Below are positions 9,404 through 50,726 of a stretch of 64,000 bases of DNA, piece after piece. The notes below the pieces were generated by a model that worked only from the letters and a program-made list of their open reading frames with translations, was not told where the DNA came from and did no database searches. Made by a program: the position numbers and the translations under genes. The DNA is from Candidatus Danuiimicrobium aquiferis. Its GTDB lineage: Bacteria; Omnitrophota; Omnitrophia; Omnitrophales; Danuiimicrobiaceae. Position 1 is the stretch's first letter, and every line of letters starts with the position of its first letter. The stretch spans positions 43,622 to 107,621 of the forward strand of contig MHFR01000048.1 of assembly GCA_001804285.1 (NCBI GenBank), given 5' to 3'.

Positions 9404-10216
9404 TCAACTTTTAATCCACTCGACAATATCCCGGGCAATCTCATCGACCGGAACGTCTTTCACGATTTTTGTTTGCCGTTGCTGCTGAGGCAGTTTTACG
9501 CTTGCGAAGGTAACGCCTTCGGCGCCAACTTTGGCCGCTTGCGCTTTCTGAAGCGCCGGCATGATGGTCCTCATATTCACCATTCCGATTTGCGGATTAT
9601 TCGGCGGTTCGGGCAGATTTCCCGTCGCCCAGCCGATAGCAATTGGAAGCGCGGAACAAACCGAAACTTGATATTGTCCGGCTTCAACACGTTCGAGAAT
9701 TTTAAACGAGCCGTCATTTTGAACCGTGAATTCGTCTACGGCGAGAAATTGATCGGTAATTCCCAAATGTTCGCCGATCAATTGGATGGTTGCACCGGCA
9801 TCGCGGGATGCGGAAGAACATCCGCCAAAAACCAGCAAGCGGGATTTGTCGAGGCCCGGAATTTTTTCGATTGCCCCGGCAAGGGTTTGTGCTACTTCCG
9901 CGGAGTCGGTAAATCCGCTTGAGGATCCGTCAATCGCGACGAGTTCAAATGCGGCTTTTTGCGCCATGGTCATCATTAATTGTTGAAGTTTTGCTTTCGG
10001 TCCGAGACTGACAAGCCAAACCTTACTGTCCCCACCGGTTTTTTTTGCCAAGTTGGCAGCTTCGTAAAGCGCGTGAGCGGCCCACGGATCGAGGACGGCC
10101 GGAAGCATCATTTCATTTTTGAGGGCCGGGCCCGTCGGGCTTTGAATCGGTTCAAGAGTTTGAAGCGGGTCCGGAACCAGACTTCCGCAGACGACGATAT
10201 GAAATCCTTGTGCCAT
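9404..10216 (-). CDS. etfB: electron transfer flavoprotein beta subunit
   Basis: EtfB-like sequence (GFHIVVCGSLVPDP...; VDEFTVQNDGSFKILER). Start placed at MAQGFHIV (10216). The longer track ORF extends into a MITE (10263-10382). Confidence 0.8.
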   Translation of the reverse strand: MAQGFHIVVCGSLVPDPLQTLEPIQSPTGPALKNEMMLPAVLDPWAAHALYEAANLAKKTGGDSKVWLVSLGPKAKLQQLMMTMAQKAAFELVAIDGSSSGFTDSAEVAQTLAGAIEKIPGLDKSRLLVFGGCSSASRDAGATIQLIGEHLGITDQFLAVDEFTVQNDGSFKILERVEAGQYQVSVCSALPIAIGWATGNLPEPPNNPQIGMVNMRTIMPALQKAQAAKVGAEGVTFASVKLPQQQRQTKIVKDVPVDEIARDIVEWIKS

Positions 10217-10262
10217 TGTCATATTCTCCTTATGAATGATGTTATGTAATTCTTGTTTTTTG

Positions 10263-10382
10263 TCATTGCGAAGCGGCAAACCGTAGAGGATATCGCTTCC
10301 GCCGAAGGCGGATCCGCCTCTGGCGGAGAAGCAATCTAAGGACCGGGATTGCTTCTCCCGCCTTTGGCGGGATCACAATGAT
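10263..10382. repeat. MITE with GTCATTGCGA...TCACAATGA(C) inverted termini
   Basis: GTCATTGCGAAGCGG...GGGATCACAATGAT. A second copy lies at 20328-20437 and a partial copy at 52966-52975. Confidence 0.6.
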
Positions 10383-10508
10383 GTGTGAGAGTGTAATTAT
10401 ATTCATGAAATCAAATTTGGCCAGCTTCTTTTATGGTGAATTTGGGGTGAGGCTTATTATTTTTAATGTTAAGCATATAAAGCTGATAGACGACATATTA
10501 TTCAGAGT

Positions 10509-10656
10509 GTCTGTTTACCGTTTTGAAGTAATTATCTACCTGTTTTTCTGTCATTCCCGCGAAAGCGGGAATCCAGAATCTATGGATGCCCGCTGAAAAC
10601 ATGCGGGCATGACACAAGTGGGCGTATCCGCCACTTCAAAATGCTAAACAAATATT
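10509..10656. mobile_element. composite MITE: TIR framework (TGTTTACCGTTTTGAAGT ... CACTTCAAAATGCTAAACAAATA) carrying a double-hairpin core (10549-10613)
   Basis: Core GTCATTCCCGCGAAAGCGGGAATCC...GGATGCCCGCTGAAAACATGCGGGCATGACA. Same TIR framework as the elements at 18596, 19002, 19803 and 50636. Confidence 0.6.
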
Positions 10657-10733
10657 ATTCGTATAGGATTTAGCTGCAGGCACAATCAATTTTATATAAA
10701 AGTGATCATGGTTTAAAAAAGGGTTCCCTTTTT

Positions 10734-12572
10734 ATGGAATATCGCGTTGTTTTATATGAGTTGAATAAATGGTTAAATGACGAAGATGTCCTGAGAACCA
10801 TCGAAAGCGTCGGCGTTCCCAGCCGTAAAGAAGTTCTTAACCTGATCAAGCGCAATCGAGTGCTTTATATTAAAAGTCTTGAAGAATCAAAAGCCAGGGC
10901 GCTTGCCGATTTTTTTAAAGGCCGAGGAATTGATTGTGATCTTGAGCCGATGGAGCTCGACGATACGGTTCGAAATTGGATTTTAGAAGAAGGGAAGAAA
11001 TGGCTCAAACGGAGCTTTGTTTATCCTCATCATTTAGTGAGTATTTGGCGGAATTATGGATTAGAAGCGGCCGGTTCGGTTCTCCCGCCCGTTAAGGCAA
11101 AAGATCCTAAATCTCTCATTAAAACAATTCTCACCATCGGGGCGGTACTGATTGGGCTTGGCATTATTTTATTCATTGCTTCGAATTGGCAACGTTTTCC
11201 CAACAGCATGAAAATTATAGGCTCGACTGTTTCGACCCTTGCATTTCTTCACGCCGGTTATTATGTGAGAGAGAAATCGTTTGGTCCGAAGCATTTGACG
11301 AATGCGCTTTTTCTTATTTCCATTTTTAGCATTGGCAGCACGATTGCTTTAATTTCACAGATTTACCACGTTGAAGCCGATTCTTATATATTGCCGCTTA
11401 TCTGGGGATTCTTAGCCTTGCCGGTTTTCTTTTTCTTGGATTATTTTCCGGCTATTTATATCGCAAGTGGTTTATGGCTTTTAGCGAATGTTTTATATCA
11501 ATCTCTGATCGGGACGGCGCCCTGGTTTTATCCTTTATTGCTGCTTGGTTTTTTATTGCCTTATAGCGCTCGAAAAAAAGACGAAAACTTTTTTAATGTC
11601 AATTTGGTTTTTTTGATGGTGGCATTATCGATGACGACTATTGTCAAGGATTTCGTTGCAAGCTCAATTTGGGTTTTATCCCTAACGTATCTTCTTAAGC
11701 GGAAGAAAACAGAATTATATGAATATCTGGTAATGGCGGGGTTTTTTATTTGGAATATTAACTTCGTTCAAAATTTCGGACGGTTCCCGAACCTGCTCTA
11801 TCTGGTTATTCTTTTCTATTTTGTGAAGCGTGCCTTGAGTTTGCGGTCAAACGAAATGATGATTGTTTCCATTTTTAATGGGTTGTACTGGCTGTCGAGT
11901 TTTTATTGGCAGGCGGAGCGACGATTTAATCTTACTCCGCCGGATGGTTCGGATATTATTCTATATTTGATGAGCGTCGGAATGATTTTTTATGGAGCCG
12001 GGAAAAGAATACTTTCGAAAAGTGAGTGGAAAACGCTCGCGAATTTTTTATGTTACGGGGGGCTTGTTTTGGTGGCGTTGATGGTCTATGTTATGTCTTT
12101 CCGTTTTTATTCGTCGAGGGACAATTTCTTCCAATCCATTCCGTATCTGTTTAGTACGTTGTGTTTTACGGTTCTTAGTGTTTATTTAGCGCTTCCTTCT
12201 CTCGTGAAGGATTTCCAGACAGATCCCAGGAAAAAAGACGAAATTGGAATTTACGCGTTTACGGCAGGCGGGTTAATTTTGACGGTTCTTGTTCCGCCTT
12301 ACGCGGGCATTCATGTTGTTTTGTTTAATTTAATTCTTTTTTTTATGGCATTTATGTTTATGACAAAGGGACACCGGGAACAACGGATTGCATTTTACAA
12401 TTGGGGAATTGCGCTTTTTATTGTTTTGATTATTTCACGTTATACGGATACGTTGTGGGCGTTTTTATCCCGTTCAATATTTTTTATTTTAGGGGGTGTC
12501 TTTTTAATTTGTTGGGCGATCTTTATTGACCGGGAAAAGAAACGTATGGGAAAGGCGCAATCGGATGATTAA
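10734..12572 (+). CDS. polytopic membrane protein (DUF2157/DUF4401-like) with ~110-aa N-terminal soluble domain
   Basis: About 14 predicted TM helices after a soluble N-terminus. A GDYXXLXY-type gene lies directly downstream, a conserved pairing. Confidence 0.5.
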   Translation: MEYRVVLYELNKWLNDEDVLRTIESVGVPSRKEVLNLIKRNRVLYIKSLEESKARALADFFKGRGIDCDLEPMELDDTVRNWILEEGKKWLKRSFVYPHHLVSIWRNYGLEAAGSVLPPVKAKDPKSLIKTILTIGAVLIGLGIILFIASNWQRFPNSMKIIGSTVSTLAFLHAGYYVREKSFGPKHLTNALFLISIFSIGSTIALISQIYHVEADSYILPLIWGFLALPVFFFLDYFPAIYIASGLWLLANVLYQSLIGTAPWFYPLLLLGFLLPYSARKKDENFFNVNLVFLMVALSMTTIVKDFVASSIWVLSLTYLLKRKKTELYEYLVMAGFFIWNINFVQNFGRFPNLLYLVILFYFVKRALSLRSNEMMIVSIFNGLYWLSSFYWQAERRFNLTPPDGSDIILYLMSVGMIFYGAGKRILSKSEWKTLANFLCYGGLVLVALMVYVMSFRFYSSRDNFFQSIPYLFSTLCFTVLSVYLALPSLVKDFQTDPRKKDEIGIYAFTAGGLILTVLVPPYAGIHVVLFNLILFFMAFMFMTKGHREQRIAFYNWGIALFIVLIISRYTDTLWAFLSRSIFFILGGVFLICWAIFIDREKKRMGKAQSDD

Positions 12573-13089
12573 ATTCAGTTTGAAACAAGGCCTTTGGCTG
12601 ACGACCCTGATTTGGGTATTAACCGTTGGCGGGGTGTGGGCTTCGCATGAATATGAACTCAGCCACGGCCGGGAAATCGTTTTAAAAACGATCCCGGTTG
12701 ATCCGATAGATTTTTTCCGGGGAGAGTATGTTAACTTGCGTTACGATATTTCTTCATTGGACCGGAAATTGATGCCTATGTTTTACGGGCAATCTTTTCC
12801 AAGAATGAGCCGGGACGCAAAAATTTATGCCAAACTTATTGAGAAAGATGGCGTATGGAATTCCGAGGGGTTTGTGTTTGAACGCCCTAAAGACGGAGTT
12901 TATTTACGGGGAAGAGTTTCTCTCTATGGCACGCCGCAGCTTAGGGTTAACTATGGGATCGAAAGTTATTTTGTCCCCGAAGGTGAAGCAAAAAAATATG
13001 AGGCTGCTCAAAATCAGAAACGTTTATATGCGGTGATTAATGTTACCTCTAAAGGCGTTGGCAAATTAAAACACCTCGAAATCCGCTGA
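12565..13089 (+). CDS. GDYXXLXY-domain protein
   Basis: N-terminal TM helix (LWLTTLIWVLTVGGVWA). Motif RGEYVNLRYDI (GDYxxLxY with D>E). Overlaps the upstream membrane-protein gene. Confidence 0.55.
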   Translation: MIKFSLKQGLWLTTLIWVLTVGGVWASHEYELSHGREIVLKTIPVDPIDFFRGEYVNLRYDISSLDRKLMPMFYGQSFPRMSRDAKIYAKLIEKDGVWNSEGFVFERPKDGVYLRGRVSLYGTPQLRVNYGIESYFVPEGEAKKYEAAQNQKRLYAVINVTSKGVGKLKHLEIR

Positions 13090-13112
13090 AAAAACTGCCA
13101 GAATTAATAATC

Positions 13113-13138
13113 AATTCTCTGCAGAATGTAATCCGCCG
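13113..13138. repeat. 26-bp direct repeat, copy 1 (AATTCTCTGCAGAATGTAATCCGCCG)
   Basis: Identical to 14260-14285, which is the last 8 codons plus stop of the ETF-QO gene. The two copies bracket the PD40 gene. Confidence 0.8.
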
Positions 13139-13175
13139 AAGCGCCGGCGCTTCGCCAGCCAATTTTTCGAGAGGC

Positions 13176-14222
13176 TTAGGTTTTTCTCGCGGGGATCCAA
13201 ACCGGATATTTATCGCTTTTCGGATGGGTTGTTACTTTGAACACCGACGTTCCGTCGGCTTTCATCACCAAAATATCGTCAAGACTATTTTTCGGATCTG
13301 GCGCCTGGTAAAATGCGGAAAAAACAACAAATTGTCCGTCCGGAGAAAACGAGGGAAGAAATTCCGCCCACTCGGAATGTTTTCCGCTTTGGCTTAAATC
13401 GACGACGGATTTCCCGTCGCGGTCGACTTTCAAAATATGCCAAATCCCGTTGCCCCAATTTTCACCCTTTGAACTCGTTGCCCGTTCAAAAACAATCCAT
13501 TGATCATCAGGGCTCCACTCGGGATCATAATTTCCTGCCGGAAAGACGGGCGTTGAAACGCCGGGACCGCCATCGTAGACGGTCCTGATATTTTTTCCTT
13601 GAGAATCCATGATTTTGATGACGAACCGGGGTGTCTTTTGATCGAGATACGCGAAAACGATTTCCTTCCCCGAATGCGACCATGCGGGATCCCCTTCGAT
13701 TGCGGCCGGTGTGTCCGTCAATGGCGTTAACTGTGTACCGTCCCGTTTGATTTTATAAATGTCGCTTTGTTCTTTGCCCTTTCGCTTCATGAGGAACACG
13801 ATCCACTCGCCGTCGGGGGAAAAGCTGTCACCCTCAGCGTGGTTTTTCGAATCCGTCAAACGTTGTTCAAGTTTGTTTTTTGTGTCAATGATCCACAGAG
13901 ATCGTTTATCCTCATCGCCCAAACCTTTGGGGGCCGTTGTGTCTTCTGCAGCCCTCGAGGCGACGATATATTGAGTCGTTTGATCAACACCAAGGATGAA
14001 ATGATGATATTTCGAATAGGTGATTCTGGTGGCGCCGCTTCCGTCGGTATTGATTGCGTAGATTTCAGACCGCCGGTCTTTGGTGTCGCGATTTGATGTT
14101 ATCAAGATATGCGCATTTTTGGGGATGGGCGTAATTTTAGCTTTTTTCGGTTGTTCGCCGTAAAGTGTTTTACCGGAGAGCAAGAAAAGCATCAAAAATA
14201 TGACAGATAGTTTTTTCATCAT
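13176..14222 (-). CDS. periplasmic PD40/WD40-like beta-propeller repeat protein (TolB-like)
   Basis: Signal peptide MMKKLSVIFLMLFLLSG. Repeated PD40 motifs (SFSPDGEWIVF, EWSPDDQWIVF, SFSPDGQFVVFSA). Confidence 0.6.
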   Translation of the reverse strand: MMKKLSVIFLMLFLLSGKTLYGEQPKKAKITPIPKNAHILITSNRDTKDRRSEIYAINTDGSGATRITYSKYHHFILGVDQTTQYIVASRAAEDTTAPKGLGDEDKRSLWIIDTKNKLEQRLTDSKNHAEGDSFSPDGEWIVFLMKRKGKEQSDIYKIKRDGTQLTPLTDTPAAIEGDPAWSHSGKEIVFAYLDQKTPRFVIKIMDSQGKNIRTVYDGGPGVSTPVFPAGNYDPEWSPDDQWIVFERATSSKGENWGNGIWHILKVDRDGKSVVDLSQSGKHSEWAEFLPSFSPDGQFVVFSAFYQAPDPKNSLDDILVMKADGTSVFKVTTHPKSDKYPVWIPARKT

Positions 14223-14257
14223 GATTCCTTTCTGACTTTATATTGTCAACGCTAATG

Positions 14258-16123
14258 CTAATTCTCTGCAGAATGTAATCCGCCGGAACCGGCACGGAAG
14301 TTGACGTTGGTGCGTTCCGGGTCAGTGTCATGGGGTTTTGCGCAAGTCCACATGCACGCGCCGCAGTGAATACATTTCTCGCGGTCGAATTGAGGCACCT
14401 GACCGTCTTCGCCGGGCGTGATGGCTTGGCCGGAGCAAATCTCAATACAGACTTTTGTTTTGCAGTCTTTGCACAGTTTTGTGTTAAGAAATGTGACATG
14501 GTCCGCAAAACCGCCCGCTGCCTGAACCTTGCCGCCCATGAGGAGTGCATCCTGATGCGAAACAAGCAATTTCCCGTCATATTGGATTTTGGGCCAGCCC
14601 GCTTTTTCCATTAAGGCGCTGTTGAGATATGTACCGGCACGAACGGTTTCCTCACGGGTTTTCGAGATTTCTTCGGGGCTGATAAGCCCTTTGTAATAGT
14701 CTTCAAGAGACGGAAAATGTTCATACAGGCGTTTTGATTTTCCGGAGAGATTCAATTTCCCACCGGTGAATCCGGAAATCGCCATTCCGATAAATCCTTT
14801 GACGAAGCCGTCATCAAATCCGTCCCGCGATTTTTCAGCCACTTTGGCTTCTTCTTCAATCCAGCTTGAGCGTCGCCGGTTCTCATACGCTTCCTGCAAA
14901 TTTTCTTTTGAGAAGGGTTTACCCGCCTTACAAAGTTCAATCACACCTTCCGCGAGTTGAATGCCCGTCATCCACGCTTCATCAACCCCGGAACCCGTTA
15001 AGACATTCGTGCTTCCGGAACCTTCGCCGATTCGGGCATATCCATCGCCCACGAGGAATGGTTCGCCGCGTTTTCCGGATTCCTGAAGCGATTTCGCGCC
15101 CCACGATTTCATGGTGCCGCCTTTTACATAACGCCAAATGTAGGGATGCATGAGCCAATATTGTAAATACCGGTAACTTGTCCGCGTGGGAGTGTTCATC
15201 CACGATGGAATAAACACGCCGACGGAAGCGAGGCGGTTCGGATACACATAGAAGAACCCGAAAATTTCCGGTTCTGGATATCCGAAAGTGTGAAATACGG
15301 TTCCCGGTTTGAGCGGGCAATCCTCGGGTAGTTCAATCACCATTTTCATTCCGACGGCCCATTCGCGCTGGTGATGATCTTTCGGCAATCCAAAATGTTG
15401 ATCGAGTTGTTGGCCGACGGCGCCGACGGGCCCGTCTCCCACGACCGTCAGATCGGCACGGATATCCATGCCGGGCATATAGCCTGCGTCCGGATTTCCG
15501 GCCTTGTCCGTTCCCTGATCCACTAACCGGATTCCGGAAACTTTTCCCCCGTCAAAAAATGCCGATTTAGCGGGCATTCCCGGCCAAACTTGAACGGCCC
15601 CGGAGGCCATGAGCTGCGAACCAACCCACGTATTGAATTGGCCGATTGAGAATACAAAACCGCCGTGTTTATTCATGAACGGAGGAATAAAGGGAACTTC
15701 AAATCCGTGTTTTTTGTAAAAAGGATTGATGCATTTTGTGGCGTTGATCAAGAAATCTGCGATCTTCAGGAGAGGAGACCTTCGGCTTTTTCCAATCGGG
15801 TCGAGCAAATAAATAAGTTTTTCGGAGGTCACGGGTGCGGCCATCGGAATTTGAGAAAGTTCTTCTGTGGTAAACGACTCACGGATTCCGCGTGCTTTCG
15901 TGACAACACCGGACGCGCCGAAACCGATATCGTCGGCGCGTTCATAGCAAATGACTTGTAACGGCATTCCCGGCATGGCTTTGCTTTGAAGGATGGGTTG
16001 AAGCGCCGGGTCCTGGAGTGCTTTTGAAAGGGTGGTGAGGAATCCGCCGGTTGCTGGGCCGAATCCGACACAGACGATATCGACGTTCATGCTTTGCCGT
16101 TCAATAGATGGCTCTGACTTCAT
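14258..16123 (-). CDS. electron-transfer-flavoprotein:quinone oxidoreductase (FixC-FixX-like fusion)
   Basis: FAD GxGxxG (VDIVCVGFGPATGG). C-terminal 4Fe-4S ferredoxin motif CIHCGACMWTC. Start may be the internal MNVDIV (16090). Confidence 0.85.
   Translation of the reverse strand: MKSEPSIERQSMNVDIVCVGFGPATGGFLTTLSKALQDPALQPILQSKAMPGMPLQVICYERADDIGFGASGVVTKARGIRESFTTEELSQIPMAAPVTSEKLIYLLDPIGKSRRSPLLKIADFLINATKCINPFYKKHGFEVPFIPPFMNKHGGFVFSIGQFNTWVGSQLMASGAVQVWPGMPAKSAFFDGGKVSGIRLVDQGTDKAGNPDAGYMPGMDIRADLTVVGDGPVGAVGQQLDQHFGLPKDHHQREWAVGMKMVIELPEDCPLKPGTVFHTFGYPEPEIFGFFYVYPNRLASVGVFIPSWMNTPTRTSYRYLQYWLMHPYIWRYVKGGTMKSWGAKSLQESGKRGEPFLVGDGYARIGEGSGSTNVLTGSGVDEAWMTGIQLAEGVIELCKAGKPFSKENLQEAYENRRRSSWIEEEAKVAEKSRDGFDDGFVKGFIGMAISGFTGGKLNLSGKSKRLYEHFPSLEDYYKGLISPEEISKTREETVRAGTYLNSALMEKAGWPKIQYDGKLLVSHQDALLMGGKVQAAGGFADHVTFLNTKLCKDCKTKVCIEICSGQAITPGEDGQVPQFDREKCIHCGACMWTCAKPHDTDPERTNVNFRAGSGGLHSAEN
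14260..14285. repeat. 26-bp direct repeat, copy 2 (3' end of ETF-QO gene)
   Basis: Identical to 13113-13138. Confidence 0.8.
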
Positions 16124-16135
16124 TTTTTTTCTCTT

Positions 16136-16300
16136 TTGTTATGCGCGCATAAGTGCACAAGTGCACAGGGGCGCAAGGAAAATCGCGACAAAAAAGGGGA
16201 CAGGCAATTGCTTAATATGAGTCATATGCCTGTCCCCTTTTTTGTTTCTTCATTGTTTCAACTTGTGCACTTGTGTTCTTGTGAGCCTGTGCGCTTATTC
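16136..16300. promoter_or_regulatory. intergenic composite: inverted GTGCACAAGTGCACA-type repeats flanking a terminator-like hairpin (16192-16246)
   Basis: Left GCGCATAAGTGCACAAGTGCACAGGGGCGC. Right CAACTTGTGCACTTGTGTTCTTGTGAGCCTGTGCGC. Centre AAAAAAGGGGACAGGCA-N21-TGCCTGTCCCCTTTTTT. Confidence 0.5.
16192..16246 (-). terminator. intrinsic-terminator-like hairpin downstream of acyl-CoA dehydrogenase gene (repeat family D)
   Basis: 11-bp GC-rich stem GGGGACAGGCA/TGCCTGTCCCC. T-tracts on both sides. Confidence 0.55.
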
Positions 16301-16313
16301 AATAACGACTTAA

Positions 16314-18401
16314 TTACGCCGGATAGTCCAAGGCTTCGGGAATCATCACCTGGCTGACGGCAAGCGCTGCGCGTTCCTTCGCCAAGCGATATCCTTTAAT
16401 GGATATGTCAACTTTTTCGCGAAGCTTTGAAAATGTCGAAATTTCTTCGTTTGTCAAATTCGGGTTGTAACCATAAACCAATTCCGCACAAATTCTTGCC
16501 GCTTCTTCACTGGCCCGTGCTGATTGAACTCTCGCCAAATCGGAAAAGAAAGTGACGAGCCCCGCCAAGCCTTCGGCGACAACCGGATTTTCAGGCCCTT
16601 TTGCTTTTAGTTCAAGCACGTCTATGATTTGACAATAGGAAGCAAGCAGCCAGCAAAGCGCATCTGCAAGCGGGAAAGTGACGCCTTGGCGCTGACCGTG
16701 GTAAACAGTTTTACCGTTCCAGTCTTTAGCGGTTTCGAGGTGTTTGAATGCCCAATACCAAACTTCCATTCCCGCGGCAAGCGCTCCGGCTCCGAGATCC
16801 GGATTCGCACCGTTGATTTTTTCAAGGTCCTTAATCCAGTTTTGAAGTTGCTGGAGAAACAGTGGGCTCGTCATGGTCACCGAAAGTTGCCGGCGTTGAA
16901 CGGCTTCCGGCCCTTCATAGGTGGCCTCAAGTTGCGAATCCATCCATTTTTGGCCGAGAAATCCGGGGCAATCTTCGGTGATGCCGTATCCGCCCATTAA
17001 ACTGACGGCTTCGCGCATAACGGTTGCGCCATAGCCTGTGTTCCAAAGTTTGCAGGCCGGGCAGAGAACGTTTGCGAGAGAATCTTGGACAACGAATTGA
17101 ACAAGCGGATCATTTCCCAATTCCTGGAATCGTTTTGCATCGCGTTTGTTCTCCGCAAGCTGTAACATTTTTAAATATTCGAGCGCATCTTCCTGCGGTT
17201 TTTTAAGCGCTTTCATTTGTGCGCGTGCTCCGGCAATTCCTTGTGCTTTGAAAATTTCTTCTTTCTTCGTTTCAACCGGATCGAATTCATCAAAGAGCCG
17301 TGCGGCTGTGAAACCGAGAGAAGCGCTTGCTTCGCCGGTTGCCCATATATCAACAAGACGTTGCACGGCATCTTCTTTCTGCTGAAGCCCCAAATCAAAA
17401 CGAGGAGTTCCAGCTGAAATTGAAGAGCCTCCCCGGAAACGGTTTCTTTGGTATCGAATCACAGGTTCAACCGCGGAAAGCAGTTTTGCAGAAGTCATAA
17501 TGCCGACCGTGACGCGCGTTCTGCGAAAGACAGCTTCAATGACTTCTGAATGTGAAAAGTTAGGAATAATCACGCCGTCTTTAACGGTGTATCCGCCGAT
17601 GATGCGGTTAGCGGGAACTTTGAGGCTGAAAATCGGATCATGGGTTGAAGAAAGCTGATGAACTAACTTGAGCGTTGGTGCGCCGCGATCATAAACGCCT
17701 GGATCTCCTTCTTCAAGAATGATCATGCAGCTTGTTTTAATTTTCGGATCATCCGTATCGACGGCGGCCGTGACAAAATTTGCAAAACCCATATTGGTGA
17801 TAAATCGTCCGCGTTTTTCGACGTGGAGAATCGGCTCTTTTCCTTCTTTCCATTCTGCAATGCGGACTTTTCCGGAAACAACTCCGGTATCGACGCCAAC
17901 GAACGGAAGCGGTTCGGTCAACGCAAAAGCGCCGCGCCAAGGTTTTTTATTTTTGTCGGAAGGGACGCAGAGGCTCATGTAGTGTTTCTTCTGTTCCGGC
18001 GTGCTTTTTTCGTGAATCGGCGAAAGGGCCAGATTTCCGGCCAAACTGCCGGTGGCAGCGCCCGCATCGACCCAGGAGAGTTCAAAAGCGACAAGCGCAA
18101 GTGCCATATTTTTCGGGCCTTCGATGAATCCGCCTTCATCCGGATCCATAAAAACGGAAGTGATACCGGCTTCATCCAGCGTAGTTAAAAGCTTGGCTTT
18201 TTCCGGCGTCCAATCATGCGTATTCCGGGCCCCGTCAGCTACTAAGCGTGCTACAATTCCGCGCGCGACTGAACGGGCGGATTGGACGACCATTTGAAGG
18301 TCGTAGCGATCCCGAAACCGCCACATAATTTGCCGGACGTCATCGCCGGGTAACGTGCTGAGTAAAGCTGTTGTGTTTTTTTCAGAACTTGCTGTGCTCA
18401 T
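16314..18401 (-). CDS. large acyl-CoA dehydrogenase family protein
   Basis: ACAD-type N- and middle-domain sequence. Length ~695 aa with C-terminal extension. In an operon with ETF-QO. Confidence 0.75.
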   Translation of the reverse strand: MSTASSEKNTTALLSTLPGDDVRQIMWRFRDRYDLQMVVQSARSVARGIVARLVADGARNTHDWTPEKAKLLTTLDEAGITSVFMDPDEGGFIEGPKNMALALVAFELSWVDAGAATGSLAGNLALSPIHEKSTPEQKKHYMSLCVPSDKNKKPWRGAFALTEPLPFVGVDTGVVSGKVRIAEWKEGKEPILHVEKRGRFITNMGFANFVTAAVDTDDPKIKTSCMIILEEGDPGVYDRGAPTLKLVHQLSSTHDPIFSLKVPANRIIGGYTVKDGVIIPNFSHSEVIEAVFRRTRVTVGIMTSAKLLSAVEPVIRYQRNRFRGGSSISAGTPRFDLGLQQKEDAVQRLVDIWATGEASASLGFTAARLFDEFDPVETKKEEIFKAQGIAGARAQMKALKKPQEDALEYLKMLQLAENKRDAKRFQELGNDPLVQFVVQDSLANVLCPACKLWNTGYGATVMREAVSLMGGYGITEDCPGFLGQKWMDSQLEATYEGPEAVQRRQLSVTMTSPLFLQQLQNWIKDLEKINGANPDLGAGALAAGMEVWYWAFKHLETAKDWNGKTVYHGQRQGVTFPLADALCWLLASYCQIIDVLELKAKGPENPVVAEGLAGLVTFFSDLARVQSARASEEAARICAELVYGYNPNLTNEEISTFSKLREKVDISIKGYRLAKERAALAVSQVMIPEALDYPA

Positions 18402-18595
18402 GAAAATAGCCCCTTTTTAATAGGATTAACAGTTTAAAAATTACGCTTTTAATGATGGTATCTATATGAAAACCAGGCCTTTATGGCCCGCATATATTAA
18501 TGATGAATGCTTTGCGATGCAAGCGAAAAGCCACACCGGGCATATGTTTTTCCGTGACGGGCGGATAAGCTAAGATTATAATAACAAAAATTTTT

Positions 18596-18702
18596 GTATC
18601 TGTTTAGCGTTCTGAAGTTGACTTTCCTCCCTCACCCCTGCCCTCTCCCTCGGGGAGAGGGCAGGGGTGAGGGGGATTTGTTAATCTCTTCAAAATTTTA
18701 GA
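18596..18702. mobile_element. MITE: TIR framework (GTATCTGTTTAGCGTTCTGAAGTTGAC ... CTCTTCAAAATTTTAG) with palindromic core CCCTCACCCCTGCCCTCTCCC-TCGG-GGAGAGGGCAGGGGTGAGGGGG
   Basis: Near-perfect 25-bp palindrome arms. Related copies at 2998, 19803, 27246, 29117 and 50636. Confidence 0.7.
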
Positions 18703-18739
18703 TGTATTTCCTATTTTTAAATTGAAGGAAAATGAATAG

Positions 18740-18949
18740 GTGAATATGAGCGCGACGAATTTAATAGCGGGAATTATCTTTGGGGGAATAGGATTTGTCG
18801 CTTTTATTTATGGAAAAAAGCAAGCCAGTTGGAAACCGCTTGCGATCGGCATCGCTTTAATGGCCTATCCTTATTTTGTTTCCAATACCATTGCGCTTTA
18901 CGCGATCGGAGGGCTTCTCACCCTTTCGTTATTCTTTTTTCATGATTAA
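18740..18949 (+). CDS. small two-TM membrane protein (69 aa), hypothetical
   Basis: Two hydrophobic helices (LIAGIIFGGIGFVAFIY; NTIALYAIGGLLTLSLFFF). Flanked on both sides by MITEs. GTG at 18740 or ATG at 18746. Confidence 0.35.
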   Translation: MNMSATNLIAGIIFGGIGFVAFIYGKKQASWKPLAIGIALMAYPYFVSNTIALYAIGGLLTLSLFFFHD

Positions 18950-19001
18950 ATTCTACTTGAAAAGAATGCCCGGCTCTGGGAAACTTAACCTTTCATTCTG
19001 T

Positions 19002-19156
19002 GTCTATTTAGCGTTTTGAAGTGGTGAACACGCCAGTTCGTGTCATGCCCGCATGCTTTAAGCGGGCATCCATAGTTGCTGGATTCCCGCTTTCGCGGGA
19101 ATGACAAAAAAGCGGACGACCTTTTATAGATAATCACTTCAAAGCGCTAAACAAAT
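19002..19156. mobile_element. composite MITE: TIRs TCTATTTAGCGTTTTGAAGTG ... CACTTCAAAGCGCTAAACAAATA with double-hairpin core (19042-19106)
   Basis: Core GTCATGCCCGCATGCTTTAAGCGGGCATCC...GGATTCCCGCTTTCGCGGGAATGACA. Confidence 0.7.
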
Positions 19157-19191
19157 ACTTCATTCTTAAATCGTCTCGGGAATAAGGATAT

Positions 19192-19785
19192 ATGGCAAAC
19201 AATAAACTGGTTTTAGATCTTGAAACGCAGAGGACGTTTGATGAAGTGGGGCGGGAAAACCTTCACAAGCTAAAGGTTTCGGTTGTCGGTGTGTATGATT
19301 ACGGGACGGATCGCTATCAAATTTATGGGGAATCCGAAATTCCCGAACTTGAAAAACGGATGCAGGCGGCGGAGCTGATCATCGGGTTTAATATTAAACG
19401 GTTTGACATGGTGGTGCTGCAACCGTATCTTTTTGCATCGGCTGAGCGATTTCCGGTGCTGGATTTAATGGAAGAAATCGAAAAAGTTCGCGGACATCGC
19501 GTGAGCCTGCAAAGCGTTGCGCAAGCGACACTTGGAGTAGGGAAAAGCGGGCATGGAATGGATGCGGTTCATTATTGGCGCGAAGGGAAAATGGAAGAAT
19601 TAAAGAAATATTGCTTAGATGATGTTAAGATTACAAAGGAAGTATACGAATACGGTTGTGCAAATCAGCGGATTTATTTTGTGTCAAACCGGGACTGGAA
19701 AAAATATGAAGTTCCGATTGCCTGGGGATCGGTTCCTGAGCCGGTAAAAGAAATAAAATCAGATTTCCCGAGCAGTTTATTTTAA
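19192..19785 (+). CDS. RNase H-like / DnaQ-like 3'-5' exonuclease domain protein
   Basis: N-terminal acidic motif LVLDLETQ. Later IGFNIKRFD and YCLDDVKITKEVYEY (Y..D motif), consistent with a DEDDy-type exonuclease fold. Weakly supported. Confidence 0.45.
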   Translation: MANNKLVLDLETQRTFDEVGRENLHKLKVSVVGVYDYGTDRYQIYGESEIPELEKRMQAAELIIGFNIKRFDMVVLQPYLFASAERFPVLDLMEEIEKVRGHRVSLQSVAQATLGVGKSGHGMDAVHYWREGKMEELKKYCLDDVKITKEVYEYGCANQRIYFVSNRDWKKYEVPIAWGSVPEPVKEIKSDFPSSLF

Positions 19786-19802
19786 TGGAAAACATGAACC
19801 AG

Positions 19803-19917
19803 CTATTTAGCGTTCTGAAGTTAGCTATTGTCCCTCACCCTAACCCTCTCCCTAAGGGAGAGGGAAAATTCAAAGCGGGGGGTGAGGGGGATTAGTTAAC
19901 CGCTTCAAAACGCTACA
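19803..19917. mobile_element. MITE, TIR framework with palindromic core (interrupted)
   Basis: TATTTAGCGTTCTGAAGTTAGC...CCCTCACCCTAACCCTCTCCCTAAGGGAGAGGG...GGGGTGAGGGGGATTAGTTAACCGCTTCAAAACGCTA. Confidence 0.7.
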
Positions 19918-19945
19918 TGAACTGTTCCCAACTCTATAAAAAAAT

Positions 19946-27653: not shown

Positions 27654-30600
27654 ATGCATTTTGGGATTAAACAAAAAAACAAATCATTTAATCTAAGCGT
27701 AAAACGAGCCACTCTCTCTATTTTTTCATCCCGTTTTCTTCGTTCAATTGCCCTTGTTGTGTTGATTTGTTTTGTGACGACGAATATCACATGGGCAGAT
27801 GTGAGCGTTGGCGCATCGATCACCACCCTTCAAAATGAAATCCAATCGCTTGCCCTCAAGCCCTTTGCGATTCCCCGGGAAGCCGGACGGATCGAAGAAT
27901 TGTTTCTTCCTGACGGAATGTCCCCGGAAACACCGCTGATCGTCTATTTGCAGGATGCTCATACCAACTTGGGCGCGCAAGAGAATATCCAAAAAATTGT
28001 GCAGGAATTAGCGCCGAAACTCAAAATTGACACGGTCCTTGTCGAAGGCGGTACGGGCGAAATCGATTTGTCGGAATTGAAATCCTATCCGGATGAAAAA
28101 ATTAAAACCAACGTTACGCAGTTCTGGATGAAAGAAGCGGTTCTGAACGGAATCGAGCGCGCTGCGATATTAAGCAAAGCCAATTTCCGCCTCATTGGAA
28201 TTGAAGACAAGAATCTTTATGAAGAAGCCGGAAAGCACTTTGTAACGGCCAAGCAGGAATCGCAGGCATTTCTTGCCGAACTTGAGCCACGCTTGAAATT
28301 GATCAACGAAAAACGGAAAGCAAAATTCAATCAAGATTTGATGGTGTTCGATGATTTGACAAATATGTTCGAAAAGAAGCAGGAGCTCATGCCTCTTGTG
28401 AGCGTGATTGCCAATGAAGCCAGGAACCGCCATCTTGACCGCTGGAAATACGCGCAAGTTGAGAAGTTTATCAGTTTGATGCTGTTTGAAATTCGCGGTG
28501 GCAATCAGCAGCAACTTCTCAGAGCGAAAAAAGATTTAGACGCAAAACAATTTTTCAAAGAGCTTGAAGCTTTAAAACAAGAAGTCAAAGAATCGCTGTT
28601 TCAGAATGACGAAGAACGCGCGATTGACGCAGAGGCGCAGGGACTAAAGTTATTGCGCGATTTGGTGTCGCTCGAAGCCACGCCGGAGCAATATCAAAAT
28701 TTTCTGAAGGACCGCGAAAAGATTGAAAGATTGATTGAAAATAATTTTGGAATTCTGTCATCCCCGCATGCAGTAGGCGGGGATCCATGGATTCCCGCTT
28801 CCGCGGGAATGACAAAACCTCAAACGAATTCATCACTCGCCCTTGAATCCGCCATCGAATTTTACGAATCCGCAATTAAACGCGACGACATCTTATTTCA
28901 AAACCTGCAGGCGGCTCTATCAAAGCAATCTTCCAAACACATTTTTCTCGTCACCGGCGGATTTCATACGCCCGGCATTGTTGAAAAGTTGAAAAGCGCG
29001 AAGCTTTCGTACGTGCTCATTTCGCCGCAAGTGAGCGAAGAAGACAACGCCAGGCAATATTTAGAACGTGTCGCTGGCAAGCGCGCCGATTTGGAGGAAT
29101 TTAAATCAAAATACGGCCCTCACCCTAACCCTCTCCCTGAGGGAGAGGGCAGTCCAAATTTCTACAGGCAGTCCTCGCAGCGAAGCGGAGAGGGGAAGTT
29201 TAAGGGGACGGGTGAGGGGGAAACGTATGCCGTGCCCTCGGTCAGCCGGGCTGAAGTTGGAATCATCCGCGAATCCTTTGATTGGGCGGCAGAGCGATCT
29301 GGGGAGATCGACAATAGTCACTGGTCACCAGTCAATAGTGCCCCTTTTTCTACGAATGTCATCCCCGCAAAAGCGGGGATCCAGCGGGATTCCCGCCTCC
29401 GCGGGAATGACACAATATTCCGCTCCGAAGCGCGAAGTACGCAGAATCATGATCAGTACGATACCCCGGCCTATAGTCTTAATTCCGGTTTTGATTCAGA
29501 TGATACTGATGAAATTCAACGAATTTTGAGCGAGTTTCGCCGCATTTCCGGCATTTCTCGGAAAACGGTCCAACAATTTGCGAAGGAAGCTATTCAATCT
29601 GCAGGCAGCAAAGAGTTGCGGAGACTTCGCTTTGAATCAACGCCTCGCGAAAGATCAATATATTACTGGACTCTTTTGATTCTTGGCTGCATCACCGTCG
29701 GTTTAGGTGCCGCTTCAGCAGGTTGGGCGTGGTCCGCGGCCATCTTGCGGGATATGGGACAGAAGGATCATGTTTCATTTTGGACATCCGTTATTCCCAT
29801 GGCGATTGGGCTTGGGATTTTCATTGTCGGAGTCATTGTTTTAATTGCGCTTAACAGACCGTACCCGCTTAATGAAAAAAGTGTCTATGAACTCGCGTTG
29901 CGGTTTAAGTATCTTGATGGCGAAACATTTCGAAAACCATCCGATTCGGCAAACCTTCTCGCCCGTTCCGAAGTGCGTGGCGAAAGTGAAGCAAAAAAAC
30001 CGATTATTGATGTTCGCCGCCTTGAAGATCAGCACCATCGGCGATTTCAGGAACTCGTCGGGCTGTATCAAAAAATAAAACCCCAATCTGTAGCGGCTGA
30101 GATCAGGCTGTTTATTTTTGGCGCGATTTCTTTCATCAGTATGATAGTCGGTTTTTTTATGATGAGTAGTATCGAAAACCCCCGAGACCTTGTCACAATG
30201 ATAATGCCGTCTATCGCCATATCTCTTACGGCGCTTATGCCCACCATTTATTTTATGTGGAAAGCTAAAAAATTGGGGACACTTTTAAATAACATTCTGG
30301 GCAATTTCAGCGGCATGGAACTGACGAAAGAGGAACGCTCACAAAAACCGAAAAAATTAGAGCAGTTTTCTTTGAGATGGGGCGAGCGGTTTGATTTCGA
30401 GAGAAAACGGGGCAAACAATATCAGACGCCCAAATTGATTGAAGGCGGGCGGATGTTTGAAGAGGAAGGAGAATTTTTTTCATTGGATCAGAGGACGATC
30501 AATGATTTGGGTGTCGAATCGCTTTTGGAAAAACAGGATAGGACAAAGACAGGATTCGGACAGTCGCGGCTCGAATGGCTCATTAAACATCCGCTTCTAA

Positions 30601-33600
30601 CGCCGGGAAAAATCCGGGAACGGCAGGCGTCTATCGGTGAATTTATCCAAAATGAATCATTCCGGAAGATTATGGAAGAAAAATTTACACAATTGGGAGA
30701 AAAAATTCGAGACCGTGCCTTTTGGAGTTTTGACGTGCCGGATTTTCGCTACCGGCCGAATAAATGGATGGCGCTCGGGTTGACATTATGCAAATTTCTG
30801 CTGATTCCGGCGGGTATTTTATTGGCCGGCTATTCGTGGAAAATGCTTCCCGTTCCCTTTGTTTTGTTTTTAATGATTCGCAGCGCGTATCTGAATGAAA
30901 AAGTCATTCGAAGAGAATGGAAGGCGGTCGGAAAGTTTATCAATGAAATATTACCCGAACTTCGGCAAGCCGAATCGCCGTTACTTCAGAAAATTTACTC
31001 CGTGCTAAAGGATGCCGTCGATCCGCATGGCTCGGCCGGCATCGCTTCTTTTATCAACCGTCCCGGCATGTTGAATGGCGCGTGGGCGTATTTAAACAAA
31101 AGAAAAGAGTTACAGAGTGTCCTCGGCGCGATTGGCGAGCTTGAGAGCTTGTATTCCCAAGGGCAGGCGGCCGTTGACAATTTGGGATATCATGATTTTC
31201 CCGAAATATTGGATCGTGATACTTCCGTTTCTGGGCCAGAACAAGGCCGGCCGGTATTAAAGTTTGAAACGGAAAAATTGCATCATCCGGCCATTCCGTT
31301 TGAGAAATCCGTCGGAAATCCGGTCCGGTTCGCTTCGGATCATTCCTTTATGATTTTAACCGGCGCGAACATGGGCGGAAAATCGACCTTTCTCAAAACA
31401 TTGGCGCTTGCGATCATTCTCGCGCAAACGGGCGGGCCGATCCGCGGGTTCAACATGAAACTGACACCGGTCAAACTCATGACGCTTTTTGATGTCAGAG
31501 ATGACATTGCGGCAGGAAAGTCCAAATATGACGCACAGACAGACCGGCTCAAAGAAATGACTGATTTAGCGGCGTCAGATCCGAGAGTGATGTTATTTTT
31601 TGATGAAATGTTAAACGGAACCAACCCGGAAGATCATCTTGTGATCGAAGAAGGCACGATCCTCTACTTGGTGAAGCTCGGGATTTTCGGCATGTTAGCC
31701 ACGCATGATTTGGAAGTGACGGAACTCGAAACAGTCGAAAAGCAACCCGGCGTTTTCAATATGCATTTTGACGAAAAATTGGATGCCGACAGGAAGCCGC
31801 AAGCGGATTATGAGTTAAGCCAGGGACCCGTTGAAGGTTCAAACGCGATTTCCATTCTTGAAAGAAAAGGATATCCTCCGGAAATTATTGACGAAGCCAA
31901 ACGCCGCGCTCTGGTGAGACTGGAGAAAAAAGCAAAAGGGCAAGCACGGGCCGAAGTGCGCCACCTTGAAAATAGTGGCAAGGCGATTATTAATCGAGGC
32001 GCACGAGAGTCCTCGATACTTTCCAAGGGGCTTGTATCGAGGGCCGAAGTTCGTAACCTTGAGAATACAGAAGTCAGAAGTCAGAAGTCAGATATGTCAT
32101 TCCCGCAGGCTTCTGGCGGGAATCTGCGTTTGCTCGCCAGAGGCGAATTTGTCTTTGGCAGAGATTCCCGACAACAGATTTCGGGAATGACACCAGAATA
32201 TCGTTCCGAAGCCCGTGCGGATTCGGATTCCGACACGCCGGCTTATGTGTTGGATCCCGGTTTCGATCCAGAACAATATCCAGACGAAGTTCATACAATT
32301 CAACGAGCATTAACTAAAATTCGCCAAATCACAAACAAAAGCCAGGCAGAAGTTCAAACGGAAGCGAATAAACATATTCGCTTTAGCAATAATTATCCAT
32401 ACGCGCTATTGTGGCATAGCGAACCGGGATTATTTAACTTTGCCAGGGCAAAATGGAAATTTTTTCTGCTTGCCGGATTATGCCTCGCTTGTTTGCCATC
32501 TGCTGTGGCAATGTTTATATATTGGATTGCTCGACCTTTCAGTACCATACAGGAAGGAAGTGAATTTCATCACTCAAAATTCATTTTGTATTTTGGGCTT
32601 TTTCTTACTTTTGCGGGATATTATTTTTTACAAACATTTTTTGCTGCGCTGCCCGTGACGGAAGCGAATGTTTTCGCCATTTTTCGCGGAATCGATTTCA
32701 TCACGAAAGATGAATATCGGGATTTGACGTTAACTCTAAAGTCGTCGAACCCTTCTGCTGAAACTAGGGCTGAAGCGCGCGCGGAACCTGATTATGACAC
32801 GCCGGGATATAATTTAAGGCCGGGATTCGATGGCGACCAAATCAATACGCTTCAAGGCGCGTTAACCACAGTTCGGAAAGTAACGAAAAAGAGCAAGGAC
32901 GAAGTTCAGCGGGCCGCGAACAAATATCTCTGGCCATATCGCTTCCGTTTTTTCTCTTACTATGATGAAACGGGATTGTTCGACATCGCTCGTTTTAGAA
33001 ATCCGCCGGGAAAGATTCCCAATTATCTGCGTGCCTTTTTGAGTCCATCCGGACTTTTTTCCTTATTAGCCGCTTTGATTTTTGCGCTTGTTTTTGCCAT
33101 TCCTGTTGCTTTAGCGCAACGCTCTTTTATGAGAATGGTCCATGATGTCATGACAACGCTTACTTTCCCGCTCGGAATACAAATAGATGACGCGGCCGAA
33201 AGATTGCCTGCCTATACGCGCATGATTACCAATCCCTATTGGTGGGGAATTGTCTTTTTTATGGCCAATATATGGGCGGCAGCAACAGTGCTGAAATTGT
33301 TACGGGTCACGGAAGCGAACATTTATACCATTTTGTACCGTGTCGGATTCCTCACGAAAGACGAATATGAAGATTTGCTGAAAACTCTGGAATCGTCGCA
33401 ACCTCTTGGTCAAGAAACGCTTTCCGGGTCACGTTCTGCGGACAAACGGAAAATCGGGAGAAGGTCGCCCATTGAAGCGGCTTCCAATTATCTTTTGATG
33501 GGATTCGCCGAAGCGCGGCATCTTGCGCGCCTCCACCAACAAGCCATGCGCCTATCCGCTGCCGGGAGATATGTGCCCGCAAGAAACTTGCGTTTAAAAA

Positions 33601-50614: not shown

Positions 50615-50635
50615 GAGTTGAATGACAAATCAAAT

Positions 50636-50726
50636 GTATCTGTTTAGCGTTTTGAGGTTGACTATCGCCCCTCACCCTAACCCTCTCCCTCGGGGAGAGG
50701 GCAGGGGTGAGGGGACGCATTTGTTA
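50636..50726. mobile_element. MITE, TIR framework with palindromic core, between convergent genes
   Basis: GTATCTGTTTAGCGTTTTGAGGTTGAC...CCCCTCACCCTAACCCTCTCCCTCGGGGAGAGGGCAGGGGTGAGGGG... Confidence 0.7.

Follow-up and report, generated by a model that had tools for sequence, protein, structure and literature searches.

A 1121-bp segment carrying one gene, for a PD40/Tricorn_N-type beta-propeller protein, has been inserted at the 3' end of an ETF-QO-like gene in the Omnitrophota bacterium Candidatus Danuiimicrobium aquiferis, and the last 26 bp of the target have been duplicated. The locus lies in a stretch of 64,000 nucleotides from contig MHFR01000048.1 (GenBank assembly GCA_001804285.1), which is referred to here as the window and to which all positions refer. 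Both the ETF-QO coding end and the hairpin that overlaps it are preserved, and the non-coding copy of the repeat is a relic of the lineage's own ETF-QO gene. The locus is an insertion scar, real and well defined yet ordinary, and shows no sign of being mobile at present. As to its origin, our best guess, with a probability of about 0.4, is that a recombinase acting in trans carried out an att-type integration, or that a larger element decayed, leaving a relic that resembles a cis-mobilizable element (CIME). The features that define the locus are as follows.

14258-16123, minus strand: ETF-QO-like gene of 621 aa with ETFQO_UQ-bd and 4Fe-4S domains, the target gene
14260-14285, minus strand: right copy of the 26-mer, where the ETF-QO-like coding sequence has its functional 3' end, with stop codon TAG at 14258-14260
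13139-14259, minus strand: segment between the repeats, presumed to be the inserted DNA, 1121 bp, without terminal inverted repeats
13176-14222, minus strand: PD40/Tricorn_N-type beta-propeller gene, 348 aa
13137-13154, no strand assigned: perfect 9+9 palindrome CGAAGCGCC/GGCGCTTCG at the insert's 3' end, with the two outermost nt (CG) inside the left repeat copy
13113-13138, minus strand: left copy of the 26-mer, a non-coding relic with its own in-frame stop codon TGA at 13111-13113
13089-13124, minus strand: hairpin (13095-13124) followed by U6 (13089-13094), the 5' arm being the last 12 nt of the left repeat copy

A duplicated gene end around an inserted gene

The 26-mer, AATTCTCTGCAGAATGTAATCCGCCG on the plus strand, is found exactly twice in the window (13113-13138 and 14260-14285), with no further match there at up to 3 mismatches and a chance expectation of 0 (100 shuffles). 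When the 180 nt around each copy are aligned, the similarity breaks off abruptly on either side. Among exact direct repeats of at least 16 nt it is the second-longest in the window, and it is the sole exception among the long ones, all others belonging to multi-copy families that resemble repetitive extragenic palindromic (REP) sequences or miniature inverted-repeat transposable elements (MITEs). On the gene (minus) strand the repeat reads C GGC GGA TTA CAT TCT GCA GAG AAT T and thus comprises one nucleotide of a Ser codon, the eight final ETF-QO codons (GGLHSAEN) and, of the stop codon, its first base. Different stops then follow, TAG after the functional copy and TGA, in frame, after the relic, which starts 37 nt beyond the PD40 stop codon. 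More than 20 public contigs, assembled from several groundwater samples taken at Rifle, have the identical structure, with 100% identity save for one contig that has one single-nucleotide polymorphism. Because these contigs come from different samples and different assemblers (IDBA scaffolds, megahit k141, Logan, JGI), the repeat is not an assembly artefact.

Read from 14259 down to 13139, the insert consists of a 36-nt spacer with an AGGA ribosome-binding site, the PD40 open reading frame (ORF) and a 37-nt tail that ends in the GC-rich palindrome. The N-terminus of the encoded protein has a hydrophobic stretch that reads like a signal peptide. In composition the gene is ordinary for the window, with a GC content of 0.47, a GC content at third codon positions (GC3) of 0.51 and host-like codon usage. 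A consensus terminator scan returned no terminator-like site on the gene strand of the spacer between ETF-QO and PD40, and from this we infer that PD40 is probably co-transcribed with ETF-QO. A promoter-like TTGACA-17-AATCAT in the same spacer was discounted, as it overlaps the PD40 start codon and promoter-like sites were found less often than chance predicts.

The conserved order of the operon is ACAD–ETF-QO–ETFβ–ETFα. A scan of one genome per species yielded about 80 loci with ETF-QO relatives (56-65% identity) and, in most of these, across many phyla, ACAD, ETF-QO and ETFβ are adjacent, with ETFβ about 10-340 nt past ETF-QO; several Acidobacteriota loci have no ETFβ after ETF-QO. The same adjacency is seen in two further Omnitrophota loci (L018 and L099) and in a 70% relative (L095-L098), the largest gap being the 335 nt of L099. 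In the window, ETF-QO and ETFβ are 3.9 kb apart, and the interval holds PD40, an opposite-strand DUF2157/GDYXXLXY gene pair and a MITE-like element. Since ETFβ adjoins ETF-QO in most relatives, and in all of the Omnitrophota and approximately 70% relatives examined, PD40 is an insertion; on this comparison of gene orders, both it and the DUF2157/GDYXXLXY pair are specific to the lineage. The 26-bp repeats bracket only PD40 and not the rest of the 3.9 kb, so that the locus, read from its sequence, bears the record of two or more insertions. No repeats that bracket the DUF2157/GDYXXLXY block turned up in a short-word search of intergenic DNA. The neighboring genes are placed as follows.

16314-18401, minus strand: ACAD gene, upstream of ETF-QO in gene direction
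10734-13089, plus strand: DUF2157 (10734-12572) and GDYXXLXY (12565-13089) pair, convergent with ETF-QO and outside the 26-bp repeats

The closest ETF-QO relative, on contig L094, is 77% identical and has the same C-terminal peptide, encoded as GGC GGC CTC CAT TCA GCA GAG AAT. The synonymous codons of the relic are those of the window's own gene and differ from those of this relative, which places the origin of the left copy in this lineage's own ETF-QO, after the split from the L094 lineage. Homology between L094 and the window ends exactly at the ETF-QO stop codon, and the 2.5 kb available downstream hold no copy of the ETF-QO gene end. Where ETFβ would be expected (L094 2164-4696) there are instead ORF6N, a hypothetical gene and AbiGi, on the opposite strand and of the defence or mobile-element type. 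From these two lineages, the gene contents hint that the ETF-QO stop junction is a recurrent insertion point.

Much of what the first-pass annotation had read from the window is upheld by these results. It had described identical 26-bp repeats around the PD40 gene (two exact copies, none expected by chance), had seen in them a duplicate of the upstream ETF-QO 3' end (matched at the codon level to the lineage's own gene) and had taken PD40 to be an insertion, and PD40 does interrupt an otherwise conserved ACAD–ETF-QO–ETFβ–ETFα operon. Its concern that the 26-mer might be a common repeat is not borne out within the window, where there are two copies only. Two statements hold in part. The repeat was said to cover the last eight codons plus the stop; the codons are correct, and of the stop only the first base is covered, the two stop codons being different. 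A site-specific insertion of a single-gene segment of about 1.1 kb at the ETF-QO end, with target duplication, had also been proposed; the insertion and the duplication stand, and the site-specificity is not demonstrated. The wider 3.9-kb lineage-specific insert in which PD40 lies had been overlooked.

Overlap of the coding end with a probable terminator

Throughout the ETF-QO family the C-terminus GG[LIMV]HSxEN followed directly by a stop codon is nearly universal and, for this reason, the alignments indicate that the last eight codons are under selection. In gene direction, the left copy is followed by GATTATT AATTCTGGCAG TTTTTT, a stretch directly adjoining the stop codon of the convergent GDYXXLXY gene. 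Together, the left copy and the left flank give the reconstructed pre-insertion gene end, …CAT TCT GCA GAG AAT TGA TTATTAATTCTGGCAGTTTTTT, and the left copy is probably the displaced original end of ETF-QO. The reconstructed end folds as a hairpin, CUGCAGAGAAUU/AAUUCUGGCAG, followed by U6 (-13 kcal/mol, z = -2.3). By this folding, ETF-QO probably had its original intrinsic terminator in the hairpin and U6, with an overlap into the coding end; the consensus terminator scan did not list the hairpin at 13089-13124. The boundary of the 26-mer coincides exactly with the stem/loop border of the hairpin.

Because the ETF-QO end and the terminator overlap, a gene fits between them only if the shared stretch is duplicated; the overlap makes duplication a requirement for insertion, and duplication is what is observed. 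Selection on the protein then keeps the right copy intact, and selection on the terminator does the same for part of the left copy. This dual selection explains why this outcome survived, whatever process produced it, and the locus is a clean natural example of an operon gaining a gene.

Possible routes of insertion

In the explanation that we favor, a promoterless PD40 unit of 1121 bp would have entered between the ETF-QO coding end and its terminator, with duplication of the last 26 bp of the target. The right copy would preserve GGLHSAEN and gain the new stop TAG, while the left copy would be the displaced original end with its stop TGA, its terminator hairpin and its U-run, and the displaced hairpin would now terminate an extended ETF-QO–PD40 transcript. 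For the event itself we infer, as the likeliest course, that a recombinase supplied in trans integrated a small circular DNA by a conservative, site-specific (att-type) reaction; the decay of a larger integrated element may instead have given the same outcome. In either case, the end product would be an att-flanked islet without an integrase, CIME-like and now fixed in the population.

Where att sites restore a gene at its 3' end, the identity extends as far as the stop codon and a replacement stop is provided. The att-type explanation is favored because the site is the 3' end of a conserved gene, because the repeat is exact, unique and sharp-ended, and because the identity runs to the first base of the stop codon, each copy having its own in-frame stop. 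It is also favored because L094 carries different, mobile-looking cargo at the same junction and because 26 bp is a typical length for att cores. Furuta et al. demanded more than 30 bp in order to exclude site-specific recombination, and 26 bp lies inside the typical range of the latter (PMC2853133). The preservation of the hairpin and U6, formed by relic plus flank, is likewise counted in favor.

By definition, a CIME is an att-flanked element from which the genes for integration and transfer have been lost (PMC6323972). The locus resembles CIMEs and the decayed islets of the Streptococcus families of integrative conjugative elements (ICEs) and of integrative mobilizable elements (IMEs) in having cargo that lies between direct repeats duplicating a conserved gene's 3' end and includes no integrase or transfer genes, and in having a restored target gene. 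The direct repeats match one candidate attachment sequence in the target gene, as in CIMEs, in that the 26-bp repeat is exact and one copy is the ETF-QO 3' end. It differs in that the insert is only 1.1 kb with one ORF, the att sites are candidates only and the host belongs to the Omnitrophota. No related ICE or IME that uses the site at the ETF-QO end was found. Taken as a whole, the feature acts like an att-flanked islet or a target-duplicating insertion.

A number of results weigh against the att-type explanation. Pfam scans of 20 ORFs across the window returned housekeeping families only, with no integrase, transposase or other recombinase. The dyad in the 26-mer is weak (at best 5 of 6 bp with a 4-nt spacer), neither the insert ends, at up to 3 mismatches, nor the palindrome have copies elsewhere in the window, and a second 26-mer-flanked cassette is absent from the window. 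A single ORF fills the insert tightly, without remnants of any larger element, its PD40 gene has a host-like composition, and the restored stop codon could be due to chance (3/16) combined with selection. No relative of PD40 closer than 29% identity was found in plasmid, phage and IMG/VR collections, and around the PD40 relatives L101-L108 (two homologue sets) there are only chance-level flanking matches of 9-12 bp. Neither an empty site nor a circular form was seen among clonal filled contigs that are unable to show one. The nearest relatives of PD40 (59-66% identity) are found in Elusimicrobia, Anaerolineales, Vogelbacteria, Spirochaetota, Thermoplasmatota and Theionarchaea, where they sit in unrelated gene contexts, some of them archaeal-looking (L101-L104; L119, context only). 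No tRNA gene was found in the window, and an Rfam search over 10000-19500 gave nothing above noise.

The site-specific, att-like mechanism that the first-pass annotation proposed finds no confirmation in the 20 scanned ORFs, which include no recombinase, cognate or other, nor in the 26-mer, which has no recombinase-type dyad. Its suggestion that other genes might be flanked by copies of upstream 3' ends led to no second example, whether in the window or in the 2.5 kb downstream in L094.

No unoccupied site was found. All contigs with the exact ETF-QO protein (18 read), PD40 protein or GDYXXLXY protein (24 read) have the filled arrangement and represent a clonal population, and no ETF-QO between 77% and 100% identity was found, either full-length or partial (the latter with a C-terminal 140-aa query). 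The predicted empty junction is …TAATAATC followed by the 26-mer and GAACCGG…, so that an empty site would read …GAGAATTGATTATTAATTCTGGCAGTTTTTT…, and the predicted circle junction is …GGCGCTT followed by the 26-mer and AGCATTAGCG…. A metagenome collection scanned for the predicted empty junction and, separately, for just the 26-mer gave no match in either case; the filled allele was not recovered either, and the scans are thus uninformative. Zero differences in 26 bp bound the age of the insertion only to within a few percent of neutral divergence, and the recent date that the first-pass annotation took from the perfect identity is not demonstrated. A PD40 fragment of 95% identity (P0024) was considered as a sibling strain and rejected, its contig L093 being chimeric; a 99% PD40 variant (P0001) has no contig on record. 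L093 (a contig of JGI 3300009296) has 826 bp identical to window 13648-14473 between unrelated flanks on both sides, one of which, in our reading of its translation, resembles a GspE/type IV pilus-type ATPase.

Nearly as likely as att-type integration, although itself doubtful, is a recombinase-free origin by break repair or replication template switching, of the class termed 'insertion with long target duplication'. On this view PD40 would have been taken in at a staggered break, or by a nascent strand that had come off its template past the gene end, with re-entry 26 nt upstream; the 26-bp duplicate would be a by-product, and selection would have kept the outcome that saved the ETF-QO C-terminus and the terminator. 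A one-off event of this type is consistent with the lack of any mobility gene, inverted ends, core sites or second copy, with the host-like GC, GC3 and codon use of PD40, and with the 2-nt (CG) overlap between the insert palindrome and the repeat at the distal junction. Gene insertions bounded by duplicated target alone, some of them overlapping gene 3' ends, are on record (PMC2853133). The class as described by Nobusato, Furuta and Kobayashi has restriction-modification (RM) cargo and repeats of more than 30 bp (46 to ~420 bp), and is defined against an empty-site genome (PMC2853133). The locus resembles it in that the insert is bounded only by a duplicated unique target, in some cases at the 3' end of a neighbor gene, and no other mobile-element genes were found within the window. 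The differences are that the repeat is 26 bp, the sole ORF encodes a PD40/Tricorn_N propeller in place of RM genes and the comparison was made without an empty-site genome. Break repair is further disfavored by the association of the published class with RM genes and with repeats that are often hundreds of base pairs long, while this cargo holds no nuclease. In addition, no donor copy of PD40 was found, every contig that carries PD40 being this locus, and the limits of the duplicate coincide exactly with the stop codon and the stem/loop border, a neater fit than would be predicted for a random break.

A non-autonomous transposon mobilized by a transposase in trans, with unusually long target duplications as in IS1630, is improbable. 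The length of the duplication falls within the 19-26 bp of IS1630 (PMC2853133), the target overlaps a hairpin, as with the inverted-repeat targets of IS1630/IS1634-type elements, and MITE-like elements in the genome imply that transposases act in trans somewhere in it. Unlike those elements, the locus has no transposase among the scanned window ORFs and no terminal inverted repeats in the 1121-bp insert, where the best match is 14/30 and is equalled by 70 of 500 shuffles. The ends of the insert are unique within the window, where an insertion sequence (IS) or MITE would be expected to have multiple copies, and the duplicate takes in one arm of the hairpin rather than the whole. Just as improbable, in our estimate, is a multi-step rearrangement in which the left copy is the last remnant of a duplicated ETF-QO, or of a tandem unit of ETF-QO end plus PD40, that was otherwise deleted. 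It would fit a relic identical to the lineage's own gene end; on the other hand, it requires two or more events with coincident endpoints, the sharp end of the identity and the short-word intergenic search reveal no other ETF-QO-derived sequence around the relic, and the relic stands within a functional-looking terminator context.

Site-specific modules of known type do not describe the locus any better. Modules flanked by Xer/dif sites (IMEX, pdif) have a site of ~28 bp with two ~11-bp inverted arms around a 6-bp center, and such a dyad is not present in the 26-mer. Integron cassettes share with the insert a promoterless single ORF, a 3' palindrome and a position suited to expression from upstream. 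They differ in that the insert lacks a long imperfect palindrome of the attC type, no integron integrase was found among the scanned window ORFs, the repeat is a 26-bp stretch from a host gene as opposed to a 7-bp core, and no core site (GTTRRRY/RYYYAAC) occurs on either strand within at least 100 nt around the boundaries (13040-13240 and 14160-14360). Of the defining features tested for integron cassettes, IS/MITEs, Xer modules and the RM long-duplication class, the locus thus fails those of all four. It is conceivable, and we regard it as a long shot, that the ETF-QO 3' end, and possibly the ends of other operon-final genes, are attachment sites of an undescribed Omnitrophota cassette system. 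Promoterless ORFs, each with a ribosome-binding site and a 3' palindrome, would then be added to operon ends with ~26 bp copied from the end of the host gene, which would let gene and overlapping terminator both survive; the function would be integron-like, with host gene ends replacing attI/attC. This proposal is rated low because there is no second example in the 64-kb window or in L094. A chance match or an assembly artefact, whose sole ground is that all data derive from metagenome assemblies, is very improbable indeed given that no matches are expected and that k141 contigs, with a k-mer far above 26, contain the structure.

To our knowledge, almost no mobile-element biology has been described for the Omnitrophota. 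If the 26-mer is a true attachment site, it would be the first integration hotspot marked in the phylum; as the evidence stands, the locus is a single fixed insertion scar of modest significance.

Other repeats in the window and a second giant gene

The window also contains a MITE-like family with terminal inverted repeats of ~22 nt, TGTNTCTGTTTASCGTTYTGAAGT, and internal GC-rich palindromes. There are at least five copies, all intergenic (10506-10670, 18595-18704, 18999-19111, 19798-19919 and 50635-50714). Inverted arms of 105 nt, 88% complementary, at 10544-10648 and 19007-19111 enclose an 8.4-kb block from DUF2157 to ACAD and could support its inversion; the gene order shows no net inversion now. 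A small RNase_H_2/PolB-exonuclease-like gene (19192-19785, plus strand) lies between the direct MITE-like copies at 18999-19111 and 19798-19919 and is thus a second repeat-bracketed gene, but the repeats there belong to a multi-copy family. Between ETFβ and DUF2157 (10280-10733), a 72-aa ORF (10378-10596, plus strand) that some annotations of metagenome-assembled genomes call consists of translated MITE/REP-like palindromes (…CHSRESGNPESMDAR) and is probably not a gene.

A giant ORF of 7292 aa without a stop codon spans 27654-49532 on the plus strand. REP/MITE-like palindromic units that are also intergenic in the window, e.g., LSSPHAVGGDPWIPASAGMTK, are read through in frame inside it (28756-28817, 29116-29162, 32041-32193, 33921-34005 and 44802-44886), an arrangement that may be likened to the Rickettsia palindromic elements within coding sequence. 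Another giant or fused gene of the phylum adjoins the ETF operon in the Omnitrophota assembly GCA_016930235.1 (L099, 1-2984), where a 5843-aa product has PHP, alanine dehydrogenase and PTA_PTB hits.

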